Source of the DNA: Spizellomyces punctatus DAOM BR117
Taxonomy: Eukaryota
Assembly: GCA_000182565.2 (NCBI GenBank)
Contig: KQ257462.1
Length of the DNA stretch: 64,000 nucleotides
Reading direction: 5' to 3' (one strand)
Below are positions 4,332-62,401 of the stretch, piece after piece. Numbering within the stretch: the stretch's first letter is position 1; every line of letters starts with the position of its first letter. Under the pieces are notes generated by a model. The model ran no database searches and was not told the DNA's origin. It was given only the letters and a program-made list of their open reading frames with translations. Both the position numbers and the translations under genes were made by a program.

Positions 4332-4473
4332 TGTGGCTGGTGCTTTCATTTAACCATTTCTGACTGTTGTCGTTGCCATGTCCCTCTGAACGCAGCAGAC
4401 CAAGACGAACAAATCACGATTGCTTTCATACTGGGCAAGACGGCCACTAGGTCAAGTTTGCATGTCCCCAAGC
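4332..4473. repeat. Diverged direct repeat copy A (partner at 7670-7849)
   Basis: Shares an exact 20-mer ACGGCCACTAGGTCAAGTTT (4440-4459 = 7816-7835) plus flanking similar blocks (TGTGGCTGG..CATTTAACCATTT..TCGTTGCCATGTC; GACGAACAA.TCA.GATTGC.TTCA). Confidence 0.8.
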
Positions 4474-4553
4474 ATCCTGCGCATGGGCAGATATTTATAG
4501 ATATTGTATGTAATAGTTACATTTCAGAAAAAAAGAATCCGATTGAAATCATA

Positions 4554-4581
4554 GTGCGGAGCCGGTGGACTTTGGCACTAG
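4554..4581 (+). repeat. Left TIR of Fanzor copy 1
   Basis: 28-bp perfect inverted match to 6860-6887. Confidence 0.95.
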
Positions 4582-4664
4582 TACAGTGATTGCAACCAAT
4601 TCAATCATAATTTTACTCGATTTAGGCACATGAACTATGGTTCGATATGGTTCGATGCAAACGA

Positions 4665-4804
4665 TGCTCCACCATTGAAAAACGGGTCCAATATGTGCGG
4701 CAATAAATGATTGAATATTCTGCAGTTGCCACACGGGTCCAATATGTGCGGCAATAAATGATTGAATATTCTGCAGTTGCTCCACCATTGAAAAACGGGT
4801 CCAA
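4665..4804. repeat. Internal duplications in the 5' region of Fanzor copy 1
   Basis: 48-bp identical copies at 4682-4729 and 4733-4780; 27-bp identical copies at 4665-4691 and 4778-4804. Confidence 0.9.
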
Positions 4805-4825
4805 CGTGCGCAGTTGTCATATTTC

Positions 4826-4832
4826 TATATAA
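4826..4832 (+). promoter_or_regulatory. Putative TATA box of Fanzor copy 1
   Basis: TATATAA about 70 nt before the ATG at 4898. The same motif lies upstream of the copy 2 ATG (35842-35848, minus strand). Confidence 0.5.
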
Positions 4833-4897
4833 CCCCCCCCCCATATCATTCTCTGCCCATTTCCCAGGCGTTCATCCATTTTTCTATTCCAATCATC

Positions 4898-6796
4898 ATG
4901 CCACCAAACAAGAAGCAAAAACTCGACAATCGACCTACCTGTCTGCATTCATGCAACAAGACTTCCTTTGCAAAGGCTTTCTTACCTAATGAGACCTACC
5001 GGCAGCGTCTTCTAGATTACATCGCCATCATCCATCAACTCGCCGACCATGCTTCCCACGCGCTGAAATTCTATCTCCTTTCAGCACCAACCTTTCCCAC
5101 GGTAAATGAAGATACAATCGAAGGCATCCTGTATCTTCTCAACAAGGGGGAGGCTTGGCATCCAAGAAAGGAAGCGAAGAAGGCATGGCGGGATAGTTTG
5201 CTGCCATACGTTCAACGGTACTGCCAAATCGTCGGCTTCGTTCATCCAAATCTACGAGGCGAGCAGCAGTCAATCAATTACCTGACAGCGAGTATGATGA
5301 CAAACCTGAAAGTCAACGTTCAAGAGCATTTTATGACGATGCTGCTCCGATATATCAATCTACGGCTGGACGTGAAGGGACGGAAAGGGCAATTTCCTCC
5401 AAAGAGTGAAGTGCGGAAAGCTTTCTTTGCTCGGCTACGCTACTTGAAGTCGATTTTCCTTTTTGATGTCGTGCCCGAGTCACTGGATGACTTGACTGCT
5501 GAAGAGAGTGAGCTTCTAGAAGAGATGTGGTCATTGGATCTCCCATTCCTTCCCAACAATCCCCTTGCCTACGCCATTGTTGCTGATCCGATGTCATTTT
5601 TTCCCGCGTACTGCAAACTCTCTGGGCTGTATGAACGATATGGCTTCCGACGGTTCAGTGCAATACCTCTGCGCCGCTCGCTCATTCAAAGTCACGTGCG
5701 AATCGACACCATCATCCTGTACCAGCATATCCTTTGCATCACACGTCCAGAAGCAGAAGCGGTCGAAAAGGATGATCTGTGGTTGCGGGTCTGTAATCTA
5801 TGTACCAAGGCTTTTCGGTCTCGCCGCGGTATGCAGTTTGAAGGCTCGATCACGACGGATGGTACCTCGGTGTCGGTTTACTTGAAACACCCTGATGCCG
5901 ACAAGTATGGAAGGCGCGGGGGTGGGAAAAAGTCAGCAAAAACGATGGAGGCGGAGGTTAAAGCGGTATATGTGGAGAACAACTTGCCTGCTTGTCGAGC
6001 AGCAGAGAACATTGTCGTTATCGACCCAAACAAGCGCGACATTCTCTACTGCCAAGACAGCAATGGTGCGACAATGTTTCGCTACACCGCCAATCAACGC
6101 TGCAGGGAGACTGGCAGCCGGCAATTTGCAAAGAGACGAGAAGCAATGAAGAAGGAAGCGGGAATTGACCTCATAGACTCACGAATACCATCCCCCAAGA
6201 CGATGAATCTCATGGACTTCATGCGTTACCTTCTCGTTCGCCGCGCTGATTGGGATCGTCGCAAGGAGTTCTACTCCCATCCTGCCCACACGCGGTGGAA
6301 GTGGCACTCTTTCATCAATCGGCAGCGAAGTGAATCGGACCTCATAAGCAACATGCGCGACAAGTTTGGGAACTTCACCGTTGTGATGGGTGATTGGAGC
6401 GATGCCGGCCGAACTGCAAAATTTCAGACCTCATCAAAGACAAAAGGCTGGCGCATTCTGTTCAGGCGCAATCGCATCAACTGCTTCCTGATTGATGAAC
6501 ACAAGACCTCATCTGTTTGCCCTCGCTGTTTGGCCTCATACAACGACTTCCTTGAAAAGGACTTCAAACAACGACCTCATTCAAGACCTTGGCGGCGACG
6601 AGAAGGCAAGGTTGAAGATGTCCATGGCTTGCTGGGTTGTACCAACCCTAACTGTTTGCAGCAAGACTGGACGACAATGCGCTACTGGAATCGAGATACG
6701 CTGGCAACGTGCAATATGCTGACAATCGTGCAATCAATGTTGGATGGGCACGGTAGACCAGAAAGGTTCAGCAGAAGCGTTCCAGCTATAGCGTAG
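4898..6796 (+). CDS. Fz1: Fanzor1 RNA-guided DNA endonuclease (TnpB-like, SpuFz1 family), 632 aa
   Basis: Intronless. ATG at 4898 (MPPNKKQK, NLS-like) aligns with the start of copy 2. RuvC-I VVIDPNKRD (D376), RuvC-II LIDEHKTS (E534), zinc finger CPRC..CTNPNC, RuvC-III WNRD (D600). Confidence 0.95.
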   Translation: MPPNKKQKLDNRPTCLHSCNKTSFAKAFLPNETYRQRLLDYIAIIHQLADHASHALKFYLLSAPTFPTVNEDTIEGILYLLNKGEAWHPRKEAKKAWRDSLLPYVQRYCQIVGFVHPNLRGEQQSINYLTASMMTNLKVNVQEHFMTMLLRYINLRLDVKGRKGQFPPKSEVRKAFFARLRYLKSIFLFDVVPESLDDLTAEESELLEEMWSLDLPFLPNNPLAYAIVADPMSFFPAYCKLSGLYERYGFRRFSAIPLRRSLIQSHVRIDTIILYQHILCITRPEAEAVEKDDLWLRVCNLCTKAFRSRRGMQFEGSITTDGTSVSVYLKHPDADKYGRRGGGKKSAKTMEAEVKAVYVENNLPACRAAENIVVIDPNKRDILYCQDSNGATMFRYTANQRCRETGSRQFAKRREAMKKEAGIDLIDSRIPSPKTMNLMDFMRYLLVRRADWDRRKEFYSHPAHTRWKWHSFINRQRSESDLISNMRDKFGNFTVVMGDWSDAGRTAKFQTSSKTKGWRILFRRNRINCFLIDEHKTSSVCPRCLASYNDFLEKDFKQRPHSRPWRRREGKVEDVHGLLGCTNPNCLQQDWTTMRYWNRDTLATCNMLTIVQSMLDGHGRPERFSRSVPAIA

Positions 6797-6814
6797 CGTA
6801 GATTGGTTAGATTA

Positions 6815-6904
6815 GCTTATCCGAACCGGTTGTCGCCGGTTCATTCCCTGGTGCGGGTGCTAGTGCCAAAGTCCACCGGCTCCGCACTAAGTAATAGGGG
6901 GAGG
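6815..6904 (+). ncRNA. Predicted Fanzor omegaRNA, copy 1 (scaffold ~6815-6889, guide ~6890-6904 AGTAATAGGGGGAGG)
   Basis: 75-nt block conserved with copy 2 (8 substitutions). Hairpin GAACCGG-ttgtcg-CCGGTTC (6823-6842); GTGCGGG can pair with TCCGCAC. Similarity stops abruptly after ..CCGCACTA. Ends are inferred. Confidence 0.85.
6860..6887 (-). repeat. Right TIR of Fanzor copy 1
   Basis: CTAGTGCCAAAGTCCACCGGCTCCGCAC, the inverted copy of 4554-4581. Confidence 0.95.
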
Positions 6905-7669
6905 TGTTCTAGTCAGCAACCCTTTCAAAATCTTCAAGGGAGTACTCCTCAGTGTTCGTCATACTAACCCAACGGGATTCCTCCGGTATATGAATCATCT
7001 TCACAATATCATCTGCAAACGTAACATTAAGTTGACACTTTGCAAATCTGTTTTTTCTCCCGGCTACACGTTGGAAGATTCTGTCAATGCGTCCTATGTA
7101 TTGGGTAGGTTGGAAGTAGTCCAAGGTAACATTCTGAGCTATGCGTTAGCAACTCAGACAGATGTACAAGCCCCTTTAAAACTGGAAAATACCTTGTTAG
7201 AGGGGTCTTGAAAACCCCTTGCCGAGATTTTGAAGAGTTCTCCCATGGGTTCGACGCAAAGGCCAATATAGCTCCCCTGATGCTCGTTTTGCTTTGGTTT
7301 AAATAGCAGATACATGGTCAACGTTTTGAAAGTAGCTGGCTGAGCCATTGTCTCAGGTGACGGCTGCAGGGCACCATTTTCATCAAGAGACATGCCCTGA
7401 AACGTAGTAGATAGCGACATTCTGAGTTGGTTGAACCGAGCGGAGTTCTCTTAGCGATCTCACACGCTGATGACTGACGGTGACCAAGCTGTATAACTGA
7501 ACGCTCCGAACGACAATGGACACAGGCTATTGAAATATCGTCCAAGCAAACTGGAAGCAGTCAATAAACAGGCTTCCAGCCGATGTTGTACCTGACGCTG
7601 GCAGACTCTCAGTGTTCTGGCAGATCAACGTAAAGACATTTCGTCCGTTTCTGAAAGCCCCAATGTTCC

Positions 7670-26273: not shown

Positions 26274-29200
26274 ATGCAGTTGCTAACGTCCAACTATGAT
26301 GATTTACTTCTTGGATATCAAGTTGAAGAGAGAGGAAAGGACGAAGGTGTTGGAGGATATTCCCCCGCTCACGAAGGGGAATGGGCGCCGGGTTGCTGGG
26401 AACTGTTTATCAAGGATGGGGAGAGCACGGAATGGGTTGACCATGCCAATCAGGATTTTGCCTTTCGACATGACGATGATGTGCTGTGGGACCTGACAGA
26501 AGACGAAGCGATATGCTTCCGGGATCGCGGAGCGGAAGGCGAGTTATCTTCAGTTGATGGGCACTTAAGTGAGCTTTGGGATGACGACTTTGCTGAAGTA
26601 ACACACGAGAGCTGTGTTGAAATGGATATAATTTGGGAAGGGAACGAGTTTTTGGATCATGAGAGCGAAGCGGAGAGTTCTCACCAGAATCAGGCGGTTT
26701 CATGTGATGAAGATGTGCTGGATACTACAGAACAAAAACATGACCATGGCGGTTCTACAATCCGTGCTAATACACTCTCCAGCAATATGGTACATTACAG
26801 TCCAGACGCACATGCCGAATGGTTCAGCGAAGATGGCTTGGAAGACACCGCAGAAAATGATAGCTGGGCGCCGCCCTCATTGAGTCGAGAGCATGATCAA
26901 ATCCAGTTCCGCTCTGAAGATGATGATATGCTGTTTACATACGAAGCGGACAGCAACAGCAGTTCTTTGAAATTCGAGCTATCGGTGGACAGCGATGTTT
27001 GGGCAGATGATCGATTATCGTACAAGGACGAGACGCTTGTACCGGATATATTAGGACTCACGGCAGGAAAGGAAATGGAAATGGATATAGATCCTCTGAT
27101 TTCCAGCCAATTGGAGAAGGACAAAAAGTTATCAAAGATCCCATTCGAAATCGTTCTAGTTGGAGATCCATGTATGGACCAGTTAGAGGTTGGGTCGCTC
27201 TGGAAAGCAACGGCACGTAGCCGGTGAGAATCAACCGATGAAGTGGTCTGCCCGTTCTGGTGCTGTAATAGTGCTAATTGCTTGATAGAGAGTGGATGCT
27301 GGAGCAAGTAGATGCCGTACTCAGTCGCATCCGACAAGCGCCCGAAACTGGAAAACAACATGTTCTCAAGATGATCTCTCGTAGTCAAAAAGTTTGGAAG
27401 TACGAGTCGACATTTTGTGAGGAAACAAGGAGTTCTGGAAATGGTCCTAAAGTCTGGAATGCAGGTATGACGATCAGATCCCAGTCATGAGACTGCAAAC
27501 AAAAAGGCACGTCTACAAAATGATTCCAGATGGGAATGGGCGCTTCGGTAAGTTCGACACTCTGAATGCTCTCAAATTTGAGAAGTAAAGGTTGAGGACT
27601 ATCATCGTATAAGACATATATGTGCGCATTCTGGAGTACTGTAAAGATCTCTTGCAAAAGAATGTAACTGCGACAAAAAGAGAGATATACTATCGTGATG
27701 TCGCTTTGTTCAAGAGTCAACGGGTTGTAGATCAGGTAATGGGATTGTGATGCATGTGATTATGCGAAGACGTGTGACAAACCTCTCAGATTGGTAGGCA
27801 ATCGAAGATCTTGCATGTACCTTCGCAGTTCAAAGGCATTGCCTCAATATGGTAAGGTTAAACTGTGGTCATCGTTGTACACTGACTCGCACGCAAGCAT
27901 CAACTTGAAATTTTTCAGGTTGCCTCGTCCAAAGGTCTGGTGCATGGGGACTTGCGCTTACATATGGTAGACAGAACTATAGTAGATTGTCTTCAAGGGG
28001 GCCATCAGGTAGGGTGATATTCTGATTAGTTCTGACCTTCAACTTTGACGACCATTGTCCCTTTGATAGGGAATTCTTATTCCTACGTCTGAACAAATAT
28101 CTCATATCCTTACAAACAAGGCTCTTTTTTTGTTCTTGATTATTTGTCCACTACTTGTTAAGTCCTTAACTAGTTGATCCATGGCTCTACATTTGGAAAC
28201 AGCAGCCAAGTTTGTGCTGGTGATCGAAAAGGAGGCAACATTCCGCACAGTCGTTGCTGACCGATTTGCTGCCATACATGGTCCATGTATCTTGATAACG
28301 GTATGAGCCACGGACGCACCGTGCACTGTGTCAACCACGATGTTACTTAGGATCGTTGTGAATAGGGGAAAGGATATCCTGACGTATCAACACGAAGACT
28401 TGTCAAAAGATTATCTGAAATTGAACGTACACATATCAAGACGCCGAATCTCGATGATGGCAATTTACCGAAGCCATGGGAACGGGACACGATCATGGAC
28501 GCACACCAGTTCGATCATTCTCGTCCGAATAGGCCGGATCTTGTTGACTTTCATGACCCTGATTCTCTGAACATCGAATTTCGAGTCGAACAGGGTGCAA
28601 CGGACCTGTTAGAAATGGAGGGCGAGAGGCCGGCGGTTATCAATGATCCATTGGAGGAGCCATATATAATTGGTGCATCTGCGGATTCGATCGTCAACAA
28701 TGATGTCGACTTGGAGACTGAAACTGAATTGGTAGAGCTGGCCGCTGCAGAACAACCTGGAGATTCAGTGAAAATCGAGACGTTTGATGTTTCTGACAGT
28801 CCAGAACGTGCACAGGTGGAGGATGGACCGGTCGAACGCCTTCCGGTTTTGGCACTTGTAGATTGCGATCCCCATGGAATTGAAATTTACTTGTGCTATA
28901 AGTTCGGCTCTAAGGTATGGAATTGGTGACAGGGGTTTTCAAAGAAATCATACACTATTGGTAGTTTGAAATCATACCAAATCGCGCAGGCAATGGCATT
29001 CGACTCTCATAATCTCGCCTGCCCTACCATCCGCTGGATCGGTCTCCGCCCAAGAGACTGGATCAACACCGACTACCAGATCGATTTTAACAAACTGCTC
29101 GTTTTGACGGAACGGGATCGGCGTCGAGCTTTGGGAATGCTAAGAAGAGGTTACATCAAACAATTTTCAGATATACGGTATAGTGCATCGCTGCTTAGAT

Positions 29201-33798: not shown

Positions 33799-33888
33799 TT
33801 AAACGTTTATATCTAGTGCGGAGCCGATGGGTATTGGCACTAGCACCCGCACCAGGAATTGAACCGGCGACAACCAGCTCGGATAAGC
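33799..33888 (-). ncRNA. Predicted Fanzor omegaRNA, copy 2 (scaffold ~33888-33814, guide ~33813-33799 GATATAAACGTTTAA)
   Basis: Minus strand reads GCTTATCCGAGCTGGTTGTCGCCGGTTCAATTCCTGGTGCGGGTGCTAGTGCCAATACCCATCGGCTCCGCACTA, colinear with the copy 1 scaffold. Ends are inferred. Confidence 0.85.
33816..33843 (+). repeat. Right TIR of Fanzor copy 2
   Basis: 28-bp perfect inverted match to 35925-35952. Confidence 0.95.
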
Positions 33889-33901
33889 TAATCTAACCAA
33901 T

Positions 33902-35791
33902 CTACGCTACGGCTGGAACACCCCTGCTGAACACCTCTGGTCTACCGTGCCCATCCAACATTGATTGCACGATTGTCAGCATATTACAGGTTGCCAGCGT
34001 ATCTCGGTTCCAGTAGCGCATCGTCCAGGCTTGCTGACAGTTAGGGTTGGTACAACCCAGCAATCCATGGACTTTTTCAATCTTGCCTTCGCGACGGCGC
34101 CAAGGTCTTGAATGAGGTCGTGTTTTGAAGTCCTTTTCAAGGAAGTCATCAGATGAGGCCAAACAGCGAGGGCAGACAGATGAGGTCTTGTACTCGTCGA
34201 GAAGGAAGCAGTTGATCCTGTTCCGCTTAAAGAGGGTGCGCCAACCTTTCGTCTTTGATGAGGTCTGAAATCTCGCAGTTCGACCGGCGTCGCTCCAATC
34301 ACCCATCACAATGGTGAAGTTTTCGCCGTACTTGTTGCGCATGTTGGATATGAGGTCTGATTCGCTCTTCTGACGGTTTATGAATGCGTGCCATTTCCAT
34401 CGAGTATGAGCAGGGTGGGAGTAGAACTCCTTTCGACGATCCCAATCAGCGCGGCGAACGAGAAGGTAACGCATGAAGTCTATGAGGTTCATCGTCTTGT
34501 GGCTTGGGATACGTGATTCTATGAGGTCAATACCGCCAGCTTTCATCCGCTGCCGTTCTTTTGCAAATCGACGGCTTCCAGTCTCCATGCAGCGTTGATT
34601 GGCGGTGTAACGGAAGATGGTGCCCTTGTTGTCTTGGCAGTAGAGAATGTCGCGCTTGTTTGGATCGATAACGACAATGTTCTCTTGACAAGCAGATAAG
34701 TTGTTTTCCACATACAGCGCCTTCACCTCAGCTGCTAGAGCCTTTGCTGACTTTCTCGCTCCGCGCTTTCCGTACTTGTCAGCTTCTGGGTGCTTTAGGT
34801 ATACAGACACCGAGGTTCCGTCTGTCGTGATCGAGCCTTCAAAATGCATACCACAGCGAGACCGAAAAGCTTTGGTACGTAGATTACAGACGCGCAACCA
34901 TAAATCGACCTTCTCTACGGCTTCTGCTTCTTGGCGGGTGATGCAGAGGATGTGGGCGTAGAGAATGACCGTGTCGATGCGAATATGGCTTTGGATGAGA
35001 GAGCGGCGCAGAGGTATCGCGCTGAACTGTTGAAAACCTTGCTGCTCGAACAACTTTGACAGTCGGCAGTATGCAGGAAAGAAGGACATCGCGTCGATGG
35101 CAATGAGGTAGGCAAGCGGCTTGTCTTGATCAGGAAATGGCAGGTTAAGTGTCCAGATCTCTTCTAAAATCTCGTTTTCAAGAATGCTCAAGTCATCCAG
35201 TGATTCTGGCATAGTTTCGAAAAGGAAAACCGACTTCAAGTAGTGTAGCTGAGTAAAGAAAGCTTGCCGCGCATCGCTTTTCAGTGGCAGTCGCTGCTTC
35301 TGTCCCTTCACGTCGAGCCGCAGATTGATATACCGAAGGAGCATCTGCATGAAATGCTCTTGAACGTTGACTTTCAGGTTCGTCATCATACTCGCTGTCA
35401 GGTAATTGACTGATTGCTGCTCGCCTCGTAGATTTGGGTGAACAAAGCCGACGATTTGGCAGTACCGTTGAACATATGGCAGCAAACAATCCCGCCATGC
35501 CTTCTTTGCTTCCTTTCTTGGATGCCAAGCCTCTCCTTTGTTGAGAAGATAGAGAATTGCTTCGATTGTATCTTCATTTACCGTGGGAAAGGTTGGTGCA
35601 GATAGGATGTAGAATTTGAGAGCGTGGGAAGCGTGGTCAGCGAGTTGATGGATGATGGCGATGTAATCTAGAAGACGCTGCCGGTAGGTCTCGTTTGGCA
35701 AGAAAGCTTTTGCAAAGGAAGTCTTGTTGCAGGTATGTAAGCAAGTAGGTTTGTCGAGTTTTTCAAGCTTTTGCTTTTTCTTTGGCGGCAT
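33902..35791 (-). CDS. Fz1: Fanzor1 RNA-guided DNA endonuclease (TnpB-like, SpuFz1 family), 629 aa
   Basis: Intronless; MPPKKKQK NLS-like start. RuvC-I VVIDPNKRD (D376), RuvC-II LLDEYKTS (E533), CPRC..CTNPNC zinc finger, WNRD (D597). Colinear paralog of 4898-6796. Confidence 0.95.
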   Translation of the reverse strand: MPPKKKQKLEKLDKPTCLHTCNKTSFAKAFLPNETYRQRLLDYIAIIHQLADHASHALKFYILSAPTFPTVNEDTIEAILYLLNKGEAWHPRKEAKKAWRDCLLPYVQRYCQIVGFVHPNLRGEQQSVNYLTASMMTNLKVNVQEHFMQMLLRYINLRLDVKGQKQRLPLKSDARQAFFTQLHYLKSVFLFETMPESLDDLSILENEILEEIWTLNLPFPDQDKPLAYLIAIDAMSFFPAYCRLSKLFEQQGFQQFSAIPLRRSLIQSHIRIDTVILYAHILCITRQEAEAVEKVDLWLRVCNLRTKAFRSRCGMHFEGSITTDGTSVSVYLKHPEADKYGKRGARKSAKALAAEVKALYVENNLSACQENIVVIDPNKRDILYCQDNKGTIFRYTANQRCMETGSRRFAKERQRMKAGGIDLIESRIPSHKTMNLIDFMRYLLVRRADWDRRKEFYSHPAHTRWKWHAFINRQKSESDLISNMRNKYGENFTIVMGDWSDAGRTARFQTSSKTKGWRTLFKRNRINCFLLDEYKTSSVCPRCLASSDDFLEKDFKTRPHSRPWRRREGKIEKVHGLLGCTNPNCQQAWTMRYWNRDTLATCNMLTIVQSMLDGHGRPEVFSRGVPAVA

Positions 35792-35924
35792 GATGATATC
35801 TGTGGGAAAAGATGAAAGCCTGGGAAAATGGGCACGACAACTTATATAGGATTTTTTGGATCAAACCATAGTTCATGAGTCTAAATCGAGTAAAATTATG
35901 ATTAAATTGGTTGGAATCTATGTA

Positions 35925-35952
35925 CTAGTGCCAATACCCATCGGCTCCGCAC
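35925..35952 (-). repeat. Left TIR of Fanzor copy 2
   Basis: Inverted copy of 33816-33843. Confidence 0.95.
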
Positions 35953-38900
35953 TATGATCTGCGTCAGCCATCCCTCTCTATTGTAATATCTTGGTATTTT
36001 GGATCGAACTTGCCAGTGCTCTTGCTTGCAGTGCTTCAGTTTACTGGCCTTTCTTCTTCTTACGGACTTACTAGGAACTCACTGATGTTATGCTGCAATA
36101 AACCATCTTTATTCTTTGCCGCTGCAATACGACTAGTTCCATGGGTCTTCTAATTAAAACACTACATGGGTACTAACTTAAAGCGGCCTTAACTTCATTG
36201 GTAAATAATTCCGGACGCTGACCGAGGCACAGGAACAAAACCTTGAGGTGGCCTGAGTGAGCACCATCGATCCATTCGGGAATGGTAAAGAAGTCGAAGA
36301 GATATGTCGAACAGAAGAGTGACTATCAACCAATCATTTAACCAAACAGTAAGATGAATGCTTTACCAGAGTTTGCCAGAGTGGTTACGAACTTTCCGAC
36401 GTCTGAGAGATCTTTTGAATCGCAGGATCCGAGGAGAGGGTATCATTTTGGACCAGCCGATCGAAGATGTCCGAGTTCGTTACTGGGCAGAGAAAAGAAC
36501 CCTTGCGCAATCTGCCCTAAAAGATCGCAGTCAAGAAGAGCAACTGTTCGAAGGATATGAGACGCAAGGAAATACATACGCGAAACCCATTACAGAAGAA
36601 GGAAACGTCCTTGGCGATTTCGTCGAGTCTCTTCGTCTGTGCAACCTGGTAGAGATTGCTCTTTTCCGTTGTTCTTGTTGCGTGCATGTGGGACTCTCAC
36701 AATCTGTCATCAGTGGGACACCTTGCTCCAGAAACAATCTATGGACAGAGGAAAGCGGGAGAACAAGCACGACGTCCAAGTCATGTCATACATCTGCAGG
36801 GCGAAACTTTGATCGGATTCATAGGAATCGATCGAATGCTGCCCACCACGACTAGCCAAAGCCGCCAATATGTCTAGCTCTCTTAGTTACGGGCATTTAG
36901 GCTATTTTGACCAAAATCAACTGAGGGCAAGTCTTTTGCGATCCTGCGTATGCGAACAACCGCCGTTCGTCACTCGAGGTCAACAGGGTACTTTCGAAAA
37001 TAACTGCATTGTAGTTTTGTTTTCCCTTGACAATATTGATACAAGAGTCAATTGTGATTTCGATGCCTGTCTTGGGATATGCAAAGGGATCTGATACCTT
37101 TTTTTTATCAATTCGAGTATCCCTTTTCCGCCCACCATGTCCGAATCCGGTTAACATCGCTGAGCCTTATCGGTATGCCGTTACATTTTCTGCAGTTGTA
37201 CGCATGTAAGAAGGAAGAAAGCAATAATAAGAAACCGACCCTTCTCGCGACAGGTTCTATGGTCATCCGCAATCTCCCGACCGAGCCGCTTCGCAGTCGT
37301 ATTGGCACTGTTTGTCGCCGGCATGACGGACTTCAAGGACCTCGAGGTATCCAAGATTGAGCACAGAAATAAACGAAATTGACAGGAACAAAGGTCAGAT
37401 GATAAATGACATGACCGGCGTTGATGCAGTGTTCTTGTGTTAGACCTGAAGAAGACGGACGAAGACCGCATATTCGAGGCACTTGCATCTTTCCCACATA
37501 TAAGACCGTCTTTCATGAAGGGCGAATGGTCCGCGACTCTACCGTTTTGCAGTTGCCAGTTACCCCGGGTGCGCATGTTGCTTCATTGGCGCTCGAAGTA
37601 AGAAACAAAACAATACTGGAAGCAGTGTAGACTGTTTTCTTGCACTTCGTCAGGTTGATCCTTCTCCATCACCTTGTACCAGAACGCCGGCAAACTCCCG
37701 CTCATTTCTTCACTGTGGGCTGCCCTGCTTACCCCCTAGCCCCAAACGCCAACAAAATGCCATCATATTACCGATGATGAATTCCTCACCGCAACGGGCT
37801 TCGCTGAAGCTTGCAACTGTACATTTAACATATCACCTACAATCCGGTCTCACTCAAATAAGGTTACGCCGATTTCAATTCGTTGCGGAATTTTCAGTGA
37901 CTATCAAATCGGCGTTTGAGTAAAGCGAGGGAATAGGGATTCCACATGCATCCTGGAATCATATCGTTTTCTTTTACCAAGACTCAATTGTAGTGTGCTG
38001 GAAAACCGGCAAATCATTAGTGAAGGCCGCTCCAACGTTATGGTGAGGACGTTCTGACCATGACAGGCGAGATGCCCTTGTCGTTGGAAGAGTGGTTTAA
38101 ATAAGTGCGCCATATATTCATTTCCACTACTGATACGGAATGATGCAAGGCTGGGGAAGAAGTCAGTGGTTTATAGGTGTAGATATTATTACATCAGACC
38201 ATTAGATGCTGCTTGTGTGGGAAACCTTCAGTGTGCAGCCTACGTTAAAGGGACATTCTGAGCTGTTCCTGCAAAGATGCGGCATCCATCTTTCATCCGT
38301 TCACTTGCTGCGTTCTACCAAGTTTATCTCAACTGACGCAAGGTGAGACCACATAGCACATTGTTCTGTCGTCGAAGTGGGCAATTACCATGTCAGCGCG
38401 GTGGACCTTTCCTCTTTTCTATGTCATCCAGGTTGGGAGACTTGCAATGTATCCGTTTATATTAAGATACAGCAGAGCATCTATTACCACACTAGCTTAG
38501 GGCTGGAAACATGCATGTCGTTCTACCGAAAGTATCCCTGGGCTGTTTTCCAATTCTAGATGCGAAGACTACACTTTCATTTCCCTTCTCATTGTAACAA
38601 GCACCCATCTCATCAATCTATTCGTCCCTCAACCAAAGTGCCTTTAACTCTAACCCTTTCCCCACCTCCGGTAAATATCCACACGTGGAAGATACAGTCG
38701 TCGGAATGCTCAAGCATCTCCACAGAGCCTTCAACGTCCACATCAAATCTAGTGTTTCTAGAATGTCGACAGAGAGGTCAAGCTGCATAGTGGCCTTGAA
38801 ACCGAGTGAATGAACCGCCGACCCTTTCGAAGCCTTGTTGGGGCGTGAGTCATTTTTTCCCTCTGGAACTGGTCGCTGGTGGGTCGGTAGACCAGTTAGG

Positions 38901-59418: not shown

Positions 59419-62401
59419 ATGTCTGCCTCAACTGCATTGACGACATGGCGGTTCCCTCCACGCCCAGGAGTTGGAGCCTCTGGGAGAAACATCCAAGTGC
59501 GAGCAAACTTTTTCCCTGTCATGACCCTTCCCGGGCAGAATATCCACCACTACGATGTCAACATTACTCCCGACGTCCCGCCAGCAAAGAATAGGAGAAT
59601 TTATCAGTTGTGGGAGGACGAACAGTTATTGAGCGGGGCGTTGAACGGTATCAGACCTGTGTTTGATGGAAGAAAGAATGTGTTTGCGGCTAAAGCGCTA
59701 CCCATTGCTCCGGGGGAAGTGGCGTTTAACATTGATTATTTTGACGATGACGATAGTAAAAAGTAAGTACAGCACACGACCGATGCTGCATTTACTCCTC
59801 TTGGAGTCTTGCAACGTTTTTGCTCCTATTTGCATCACACTACCGGCTTCGATGGATTCGACAACTTCTGATTGGTGTCATTTTCAGGCGCGGGCCGAAA
59901 AAGTTCACATTGATCATCAAAAAGGTTGGCGAAATAAATATGCAGAAATTGTCAGCCTTCCTCGATGGGCGACTAGCTGACACGCCGAATGACGCCATTA
60001 TGGCTCTTGATATCCTCCTCCGTCACCGTCCTTCCCTTACTTACACCACAATTGGAAGGTGCTTCTATACGCCGGATTCCGCTGCGAGTATTGCCAATGG
60101 TGCCCAGTTGTGGCAAGGGTTCCATCAAAGTATCAGGCCAACCCGGGGGCAGATGCTAATCAATTTGGATGTATCTGCAACAGCCTTCTATCAGCCTGGT
60201 AAATACTCAACTAGATAATTTCAATGTAAGCGATAAGCTGACATTCGTTTTCCAAGGCCCTGTTATTGAGATGGTCGCCAAGATTCTTGGTAGACACAGT
60301 GGCGCGGATTTACGTGCACCACTAAGTGACCGGGACAGACTGAAGGTAGAAAAGGTGCTGAAAGGACTGAAGATTGTCGTCACCCATCGTGGACAGATCC
60401 GCCGCAAATTCCGAATTACAAAGATCACATCCACCCCCGCTAACCGTACCATGTTCTCCCTGGAGAGCACTGGTCTCGAAAACTCTGTTGCTGGATATTT
60501 CCAAGCCAAGTACAATCACCAGCTGTACTTTCCTCACCTCCCCTGCCTTGTTGTTGGTGACCCATCACGACAGGTATTCCTACCAATGGAGGTCTGTGAC
60601 ATTGTGCCCGGTCAAAGACACTTGAGGAAATTGAATGAGCGCCAGGTTCGCATACTTTGTTCATGACACCGTTGGCTCAGTACTTACCGCTACCCACCTG
60701 CAGACGGCGGAAATGATCAAGTTCACTTGCCAGCCACCTCACGTTCGATCCAATAAGATTTCAGCCGGTATTACCATTCTTCAGCAAAGAGACAATGATT
60801 ATCTCCGCGAGTTTGGTGTGCAGATTGGTCATGAAATGACAATTGTCAATGCACGTGTACTACCTGCTCCCGCTATTTCTTACCACCCAGCTTCAAAAGA
60901 GCCCGTCATCACTCCTCGGGAGGGAGCCTGGAACCTTCGCGACAAGATGGTTGCTCAGGGTGTTACAGTTCGATCCTGGTCTGTGATTGCATTTGGTCAG
61001 GAAACTGATTACCCTGTCGCTGCCATTCAAAAGTTTGTCACGCTTCTCGTGCAAACCTGCGAGGAGTGTGGTGTGTTCATTCAGAATCGCCAACCCCCAA
61101 TTTCCTACGCGAACCCCCTGGGCAATGTGGAGAAGACTCTGATTGATGCTTACATGTTAGCTGGAAATTCCTTCCAGGAGCGTCCTCAGATGGTTCTGTG
61201 CATCTTGCCCAACACGGGTGTGCCACTTTACGCTGAGATCAAACGGGTGTCTGACACCATTATTGGAGTCGCCACACAGTGTATACAGGCTAAGCACATG
61301 TTTGCGGCCAAAAGGCAATACTGCGCGAATGTATGTTTGAAGATGAATGTTAAGCTGGGTGGTATGAACAGTTACTTGTCAAATACTCAACTGCCGTTCG
61401 TGAGTGAGCGGCCGACCATTATTCTTGGGGCAGATGTTACGGTGGGTATTGTATTCTTCTACGGTCTTGAACATCAAGTTCTAAATTTATTTTTTTAGCA
61501 TCCGGCCCCTGGCTCTGCCTCCAACCAATCGATTGCGGCCCTTGTTGGATCCATGGATGCACAATGCTCACGGTTTGCCGCGGCGATCCGTGTCCAGAAA
61601 GGACGTCAAGAAGTTATCCAGGACCTCTCAGGCATGGTGATTGAGCTCCTCAAGACCTTTTACCAGACCTGCGGAGCCAAGCCAGAGCGTATTGTCTTTT
61701 ATCGGGATGGTGTATCTGAGGGACAGTTTGCTGAAGTTTTGCGATGCGAGGTAGAGGCTATCCGAAGGGCCTGTGTCTCTCTCGAACCGACGTACAGACC
61801 GACTGTGACGTTTGTCGTTGTTCAAAAACGTCATCATGCAAGATTTTTCCCGATCCGAAAGGAGGACTCGGACCGGAGTGGAAATGTCTTGCCAGGGACA
61901 GTGGTTGAAACGGGTGTGACGCATCCCTCCGAATTCGATTTCTACCTCTGCTCGCATCCGGGTCTCCAAGGGACGTCCAAACCCACTCACTACCACGTGC
62001 TGCATGATGAGAACCGATTTTCCCCCGACGCGCTCCAAGAGCTTACTTACCGCCTCTGCTACCTGTACTGCCGTGCCACGCGAAGTGTTTCCGTATGTCC
62101 ACCCGCTTATTACGCGCATTTGGTTGCTGCTCGAGCGCGATTCCACGCAACGGGCGAAGGATGGAGTGAGAGTTCAAGTGAAGGAAGTGTGTCAAGCAAT
62201 GGGAGCGCCCAGACTGTACCGAATGTGGCTGCTGTCCCTCTTGGTGGTATGATTGGTGTGCCGAATGGTAATGGGATTCCTGTGGTGGCGCCAGCGGCGG
62301 CGGGGGTTGGTAAAAAGTGTGCTGTGAAGGAGGGTGCGGTGCGAATGATGAATTACGGCGTTGTGAAGGAGGAGTTGACTAAAGTCATGTATTTCATGTG
62401 A
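59419..62401 (+). CDS. AGO: Argonaute (multi-exon)
   Basis: N domain (RANFF, HHYDV), L1/PAZ ([22 protein letters not shown]), MID ([17 protein letters not shown]) and PIWI with [22 protein letters not shown]. Confidence 0.97.

Follow-up and report, generated by a model that had tools for sequence, protein, structure and literature searches.

The window, that is, the whole stretch of 64,000 nucleotides analysed, contains two copies of the non-autonomous element SPu-1 (also written Spu-1) of Spizellomyces punctatus, each encoding a Fanzor1 protein: copy 1 at 4554-6887 on the plus strand and copy 2 at 33816-35952 on the minus strand. In both, the CATA of the left flank is most probably the TAM and the right flank supplies the guide, an arrangement that would render the empty site cleavable and the filled site not; to this reading as a whole, in which the cutting of empty alleles and the restoration of the element are the presumed outcome, we assign a probability of roughly 0.85. 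It is built on the element anatomy, the TAM, the position of the guide and a family-wide left CATA, all of which are observed. In the working proposed for the element, Fanzor1 would read 5'-CATA as its TAM, with the element sitting directly 3' of CATA and the last two bases of this motif being the left TA. The omegaRNA scaffold would run through the right repeat and the right TA, and the next 13-15 nt of host flank would be the guide. An element-free chromosome with one TA would present CATA and then the guide match, that is, a substrate for the copy's own RNP, while the filled locus would be no substrate, its match being preceded by ACTA and its left CATA followed by the repeat. The TA would be duplicated at insertion, empty alleles would be cut in vivo and, by analogy with TnpB, repair from the filled copy would restore or spread the element.

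SPu-1 is the prototype element of the Fanzor discovery, with PMC3627910 and PMC10432273 as references for the family; the latter with its supplement, as well as PMC10530073, PMC10711439 and PMC13565253, are drawn on here in excerpt. In the S. punctatus genome, Saito et al. (2023, PMC10432273) describe 42 loci of the Fz type and a further 134 'ghost' loci that have no ORF, and copy 1 is present among the Fz loci of that supplement (file 5, near part 15). Both window copies have terminal inverted repeats of about 30 nt with a TA on each side. In copy 1 the left repeat (4554..4584, plus strand) and the right one (6857..6887, minus strand) correspond over 31 nt at 96.8% identity, including an exact inverted match of 28 nt at 6860-6887 with 0 mismatches (0 expected; none in 100 shuffles). 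In copy 2, sequence reading and BLAST placed the left repeat at 35922..35952 (minus strand) and the right repeat at 33816..33846 (plus strand). A BLAST comparison of the window with copy 1 returned only copies 1 and 2, with no short derivative, and each copy contains a single long ORF. Copy 1 is about 200 bp longer than copy 2 because of repeated segments in its 5' untranslated part (4640-4810), where, for instance, 4665-4691 is found again at 4778-4804 and, around 4690-4780, some 50 nt occur in repeated form.

The Fanzor1 gene of copy 1 (4898..6796, plus strand) is an intact ORF of 632 aa, the product of which was matched by phmmer to PDB 8gkh (SpuFz1) over residues 2-632 with E = 0 and 1246 bits. 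The gene of copy 2 (33902..35791, minus strand) encodes a protein of 629 aa, 83% identical to the former, which corresponds to ortholog ID14 of Saito et al., as the 400 residues compared and the length of 629 agree with row ID14 in the excerpt of supplementary file 4 of PMC10432273. Neither protein matched any Pfam family at E <= 0.1, and the motifs of the SpuFz1 type, namely VIDPNK, DE[HY]KTS, YWNRD, CPRC and CTNPNC (RuvC D-E-D triad and zinc-ribbon), are present in both. When the residues named in the excerpt of PMC10432273 were mapped by hand onto the alignment of copy 1 with 8gkh, the catalytic peptides VIDPNK, DE[HY]KTS and YWNRD (D383, N385, E541, D606) were located in the two proteins, together with the TAM-reading peptides WHPRKEA, GEQQS[IV]NY, CITR and ADKYG. 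The latter contain R96, Q129, Q130, N133, R291 and Y345, reported as the TAM contacts of SpuFz1 (PMC10432273).

As regards the left flank, copy 1 is preceded by ATCATA at 4548-4553 and its repeat starts at 4554, the TAM motif CATA being read directly at 4550..4553 (plus strand), with 4552-4553 as the left TA. The left junction of copy 2 reads, on the minus strand, GCAGATCATA followed by GTGCGGAGCC at 35958-35952, with CATA at 35953..35956 (minus strand) and its TA at 35953-35954. The original prediction had stated that both insertions are preceded by ATCATA on their own strand and continue at the right end with TA and a unique flank, a description that direct reading showed to be exact. Moreover, the motif claimed there as the TAM agrees with the published one: 5'-CATA is the measured TAM of the SpuFz1 orthologs (PMC10432273), including ID14, that is, copy 2, for which CATA stands as a published value in the TAM column of the Supplementary Table of the same work. 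For copy 1, the conserved TAM-reading residues of the predicted protein point to CATA as well.

As a two-site observation the shared motif is modest, since CA precedes 464 of the 6109 TA dinucleotides of the window (7.6%) and its presence before TA in both copies by chance has P = 0.006. A left repeat of 30 nt beginning with TA and preceded by a conserved CA has been described for Fz and ghost loci alike (PMC10432273). A tally of left flanks over other copies, proposed as a check together with the original prediction, was carried out by text search of the excerpted supplementary loci of PMC10432273, in ten block registers and anchored on the repeat (the 11-nt repeat start for the Fz type), not on the flank. 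Among the 31 left ends sampled from these loci and the window, 28 carry CATA and 3 TATA, with ATA in 31/31, so that most of the other copies do keep CATA. The Fz-type sample (n = 18: 15 of the 24 occurrences in file 5, one in file 6, one inverted left end and window copy 2) comprises 16 CATA and 2 TATA ends, and the ghost sample (n = 13: 12 of 27 occurrences in six of the ten registers, plus one more) 12 CATA and 1 TATA. Chance as the source of the family-wide CATA is ruled out by the comparison of 28/31 with the 7.6% background (binomial P = 1.6e-28).

A longer motif does not emerge from the same sample. The two bases upstream of CATA are variable, being AA at the canonical SpuFz1 locus in the excerpted supplement, and AT stands before CATA in 3 of 28 copies, the expectation being 8.6% (P = 0.44). 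A conserved ATCATA was consequently rejected and the AT common to both window copies is attributed to chance, as the original prediction had itself cautioned. An ATCATA is also conserved inside the element, about 50 nt from the left end, at 4604-4609 in copy 1 and at 35897-35902 on the minus strand in copy 2, and this internal TAM-like sequence (..AATCATAATTTTACTCG..) recurs in the sampled supplementary loci; no guide in the window matches the sequence after it. Metagenomes scanned with the 15 nt at the start of the repeat gave at least 120 loci, all of them chance occurrences among the matches listed, the best listed having 8 mismatches over the 31-nt repeat; no further copy was among them.

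The omegaRNA has been reported to consist of a 75-nt scaffold and a variable extension of 14-15 nt (PMC10432273) and, since the last bases of that scaffold are CGCACTA (supplementary file 3 of the same work), the guide begins directly after the right TA. In copy 2, the omegaRNA (33801..33887, minus strand) is formed by a 74-nt scaffold ending in TA (33814-33815) and a 13-nt guide (33801-33813). Compared by eye, 33887-33801 is letter for letter the 87-nt omegaRNA of ID14 in the excerpt of file 4 of PMC10432273, which ends in the 13-nt guide GATATAAACGTTT. The guide predicted for this copy was thereby recovered in full, the recorded RNA continuing with exactly those 13 nt. While the position of the guide beyond the right TA is given in copy 2 by this identity, it is given in copy 1 by homology and fold only: the predicted scaffold, including the right repeat and the right TA, extends over 6816..6889 (plus strand) by homology to the copy 2 omegaRNA and to the 75-nt scaffold as well as by its fold, and the predicted guide and target, AGTAATAGGGGGAGG, would occupy 6890..6904 (plus strand), as positioned from the scaffold end. 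In the excerpted table, the S. punctatus omegaRNAs diverge right after the scaffold TA at 5/5 loci. Both omegaRNA regions of the window form two hairpins, the second made by the right repeat, with the guide unpaired in the centroid structure and z = -3.3 each; no Rfam family reached its gathering score anywhere in the window. Within the window, the sole match of each guide with up to 2 mismatches is its own flank, and the three matches of the copy 1 guide with 3 mismatches all stand without CATA.

Concerning transcription, RNA run X17 showed a mean depth of about 8000 at 6808-6853, in the scaffold region of copy 1, against at most 72 over the Fanzor ORF. Nearly all of these reads are partial fits, with loose ends before 6808-6820 and behind 6853 that are unlike copy 1. 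The consensus of the loose ends behind 6853 in run X8 resembles a ghost right end in the excerpted supplement of PMC10432273, while X17's own reads differently. Because the loose ends differ from copy 1, it is probably not this copy but its relatives, of the ghost type or others, that give rise to the abundant scaffold-region RNA. First mates lie on the plus strand over the scaffold region, as against the minus strand over the 5' part of the ORF, and no sharp RNA ends were present among those listed for X17.

At the right end of copy 1, the TA at 6888..6889 (plus strand) represents the last two scaffold bases as well as a putative target-site duplication, and the right end of copy 2 reads, on the minus strand, CTCCGCAC, then TA, then GATATAAACGTTTAA at 33816-33799. 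TA directly follows the last repeat base in 11/11 right ends found without requiring TA, the flanks beyond being all different, and it stands at 31/31 sampled left ends. TG, in turn, follows the right TA in none of 18 junctions, 16 of them from the supplementary loci of PMC10432273; 7 of the 18 flanks came from search terms that did require TA. For a symmetric TA-duplicating transposase, such as those with Tc1/mariner-type targets, TG would be expected there as the mirror of CA. Such a symmetric preference around TA was not found, the difference between CA on the left (28/31) and TG on the right (0/18) having a Fisher P of 1.2e-10; and, since the right TA is devoid of the mirror TG, CA is not part of the inverted repeat. 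The flank motif is strictly one-sided, as in TnpB elements. The presence of TA on both sides was read as a target-site duplication, called 'putative', by Bao and Jurka (2013, PMC3627910), while Saito et al. count TA as part of the repeat (PMC10432273). A duplication of TA on insertion stays putative, because no empty allele was found.

The last point bears on a different interpretation of the left end, in which CA and TA would be fixed terminal bases of the element, so that the left end would be asymmetric, no duplication would take place and the TAM would travel with the element. The empty site would then be without CATA beside the guide match, empty alleles would not be cut, and there would be another function behind the agreement of TAM and left end. 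Such an interpretation can draw on the excerpt of PMC10432273, in which the 30-nt repeat starts at TA and CA is called two further conserved nucleotides, as well as on the lack of a documented empty site and on the fact that CATA, at 28/31, is about as conserved as many repeat positions between copies. Nevertheless, we consider it very improbable, because CA is without a mirror at the right end (TG 0/18) and because ghosts whose repeats differ at 7/30 positions still keep CATA in the excerpted loci. In addition, a TA at either end is a classic hallmark of TA-duplicating elements, and was so read by Bao and Jurka (PMC3627910), and for related Fanzor1 elements the duplicated site is treated as belonging to the scaffold and the TAM (PMC10711439, PMC13565253).

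Returning to CATA as a flanking TAM, the two sides of the element can be joined. From the measured TAM, the scaffold ending in CGCACTA and the 13-nt guide of ID14, it follows that a site with one TA would read CATA plus guide match, as anticipated in the original prediction, the duplication of TA itself being putative. The accompanying claim, that the filled allele separates the TAM from the guide match, was upheld at both junctions. The right one reads GCACTA, so that the TAM positions are occupied by ACTA, with a different base at each of the two sites that R96 and Q129 contact; at the left one, CATA runs directly into the repeat, and no guide matches the repeat. It has to be considered, in this context, that excision of Tc1/mariner elements usually leaves a footprint between two TAs. 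Since a footprint of this kind would not recreate CATA beside the guide match, alleles that were never occupied or were excised precisely suit the model better than typical excision products do. Accordingly, the phrase 'empty or excised alleles' of the original prediction is safe only where a site has never been occupied or has been vacated precisely.

No empty allele was found, either as a paralogous empty site in the window or as a read joint across copy 1. In DNA run X18, of the same species label, no read joint skips 4554-6889, at a read length of 38 nt, a reporting threshold of 2% and a depth over the flanks of about 25-125 reads when both directions are added up. The contigs obtained from runs X8 and X10 were short, belonged only to other copies and to a paralog, and did not span any junction, and there were no loose ends at the repeat boundaries among the read ends listed. 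The segment 7670-7849 was tried as a paralogous empty site of copy 1 and discarded, since its likeness to the left flank stops about 80 bp short of the insertion point. Upstream of copy 1, at 4332-4473, stretches of 51 and 70 nt recur in that segment, about 3.4 kb downstream, with 84% identity, and the downstream version is carried by X8 and X10 contigs; the likeness is probably that of paralogous neighbouring genes or promoters, and it is not an empty site. On the other side of the element, an X8 contig (window 6895-7193) covers 6895-7133 and skips 7134-7192, the CT..AC ends of which indicate a spliced minus-strand transcript ending 6 nt from the right TA. The predicted guide region of copy 1 consequently overlaps the 3' end of the transcript of a neighbouring gene.

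In comparison with the published SPu-1/SpuFz1 (PMC3627910, PMC10432273, PDB 8gkh), the window copies belong to the same family and partly to the same loci, with no structural difference in the material excerpted: the repeats, flanking TAs, upstream CA, scaffold ending in TA and 13-15-nt guide are as published. The elements have in common with the TnpB/IscB systems of IS200/IS605 and IS607 that the TAM is the left-flank motif (28/31 in the census) and the guide comes from the right flank, an arrangement in which the element-free site is the target and the filled site is protected. There, the transposase excises the element precisely, no duplication arises, and the empty joint has been shown to be cleaved (Meers et al. 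2023 via PMC10432273; PMC13565253). SPu-1, unlike them, has inverted-repeat ends, an apparent TA duplication that makes up half of the TAM, a right TA absorbed into the scaffold and no known transposase. With Tc1/mariner and IS630 it shares terminal inverted repeats flanked by TA on both sides; it differs from them in having no associated DDE transposase and in its one-sided flank (CA 28/31 left, TG 0/18 right). In fact, no transposase domain is present in any of the window's 16 long ORFs, all ordinary fungal genes, each element has a single ORF, and PMC10432273, in the excerpt, states that no transposase is known for Spu-1 and that none was found within Spu-1 repeats.

Parts of this picture have been proposed before. 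Restorative homing was raised as a possibility for Fanzor by Saito et al. (PMC10432273), Jiang et al. noted that the TAM agrees 'in some cases' with the insertion site (PMC10530073), and Yoon et al. described the duplicated site as part of the Fanzor1 scaffold (PMC10711439). According to a 2026 review, recognition of the TAM takes in the 5' TSD, and the scaffold contains the 3' TSD (PMC13565253). As far as the excerpts of PMC13565253 and PMC10432273 go, cleavage of the empty site is reported for TnpB and IscB only, not for Fanzor.

It could also be argued that CATA is the target preference of a transposase acting in trans, and that the Fanzor RNP does something other than cut empty alleles, such as acting in trans via ghost guides, regulation or defence. 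In this regard, the excerpt of PMC10432273 states that the role of Fanzor is unknown and proposes trans action through ghost omegaRNAs; RNA reads with ghost-type ends are very abundant on the scaffold region, and the DNA run gave no sign of empty or excised alleles. We hold this alternative for hardly probable, in view of the left-flank TAM and right-flank guide, arranged as for restorative homing by TnpB and IscB, and of the one-sidedness of the motif (28/31 vs 0/18, Fisher P = 1.2e-10), which is unlike a symmetric TA-duplicating transposase.

Cutting of empty alleles, if it takes place, would allow a further and rather speculative step, unlikely as it stands, in which CA would be a survivorship mark of Fanzor action and not a choice of the transposase. 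Insertions would occur at TA sites in either orientation, and only those with CA 5' of the left TA would have the empty or lost allele cut by their own RNP and recopied, and so persist and multiply. Should this be true, the one-sided motif (28/31 left, 0/18 right) would amount to the first trace in a eukaryotic genome of homing driven by Fanzor.

With respect to its standing, the initial observation is real and its reading of the anatomy is right, but already published, also for copy 2 itself: this copy is ID14, with recorded omegaRNA and TAM, and one of the two predictions had thus been measured on it. As the element, the TAM, the guide RNA and the conserved CA all appeared between 2013 and 2024, the result matters little as a discovery, while underlining that raw sequence can be enough for a correct reading of the TAM-plus-guide logic. 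What the present work adds is an explicit count of the flanks, the dismissal of the extra AT as chance and the one-sided character of the motif, although a full logo may stand in the supplementary PDFs of PMC10432273 or in its Extended Data Fig. 3a. Any model of transposition has to accommodate the one-sided flank motif, a modest constraint, and the points sharpened for Fanzors are the TA duplication, the mobilising enzyme and the in vivo cutting of empty alleles.

Some minor observations accompany these results. The window also contains ORF pieces encoding a Spo11/Top6A Toprim domain as well as Argonaute Mid and Piwi domains, located at 28366-28926 and 60635-62398; the presence of meiotic-break and small-RNA machinery in the same 64 kb bears on a possible meiotic homing or RNA silencing of the elements. 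In the excerpt of file 5 of PMC10432273, two Fz loci (near parts 8 and 20) have 11 nt of left flank in common, CCTTGTACATA, and differ further upstream. In the Fz locus near part 12 of the same file, the right TA of the full element is followed after about 17 bp by an inverted left-end fragment of 65 bp that has a CATA of its own.
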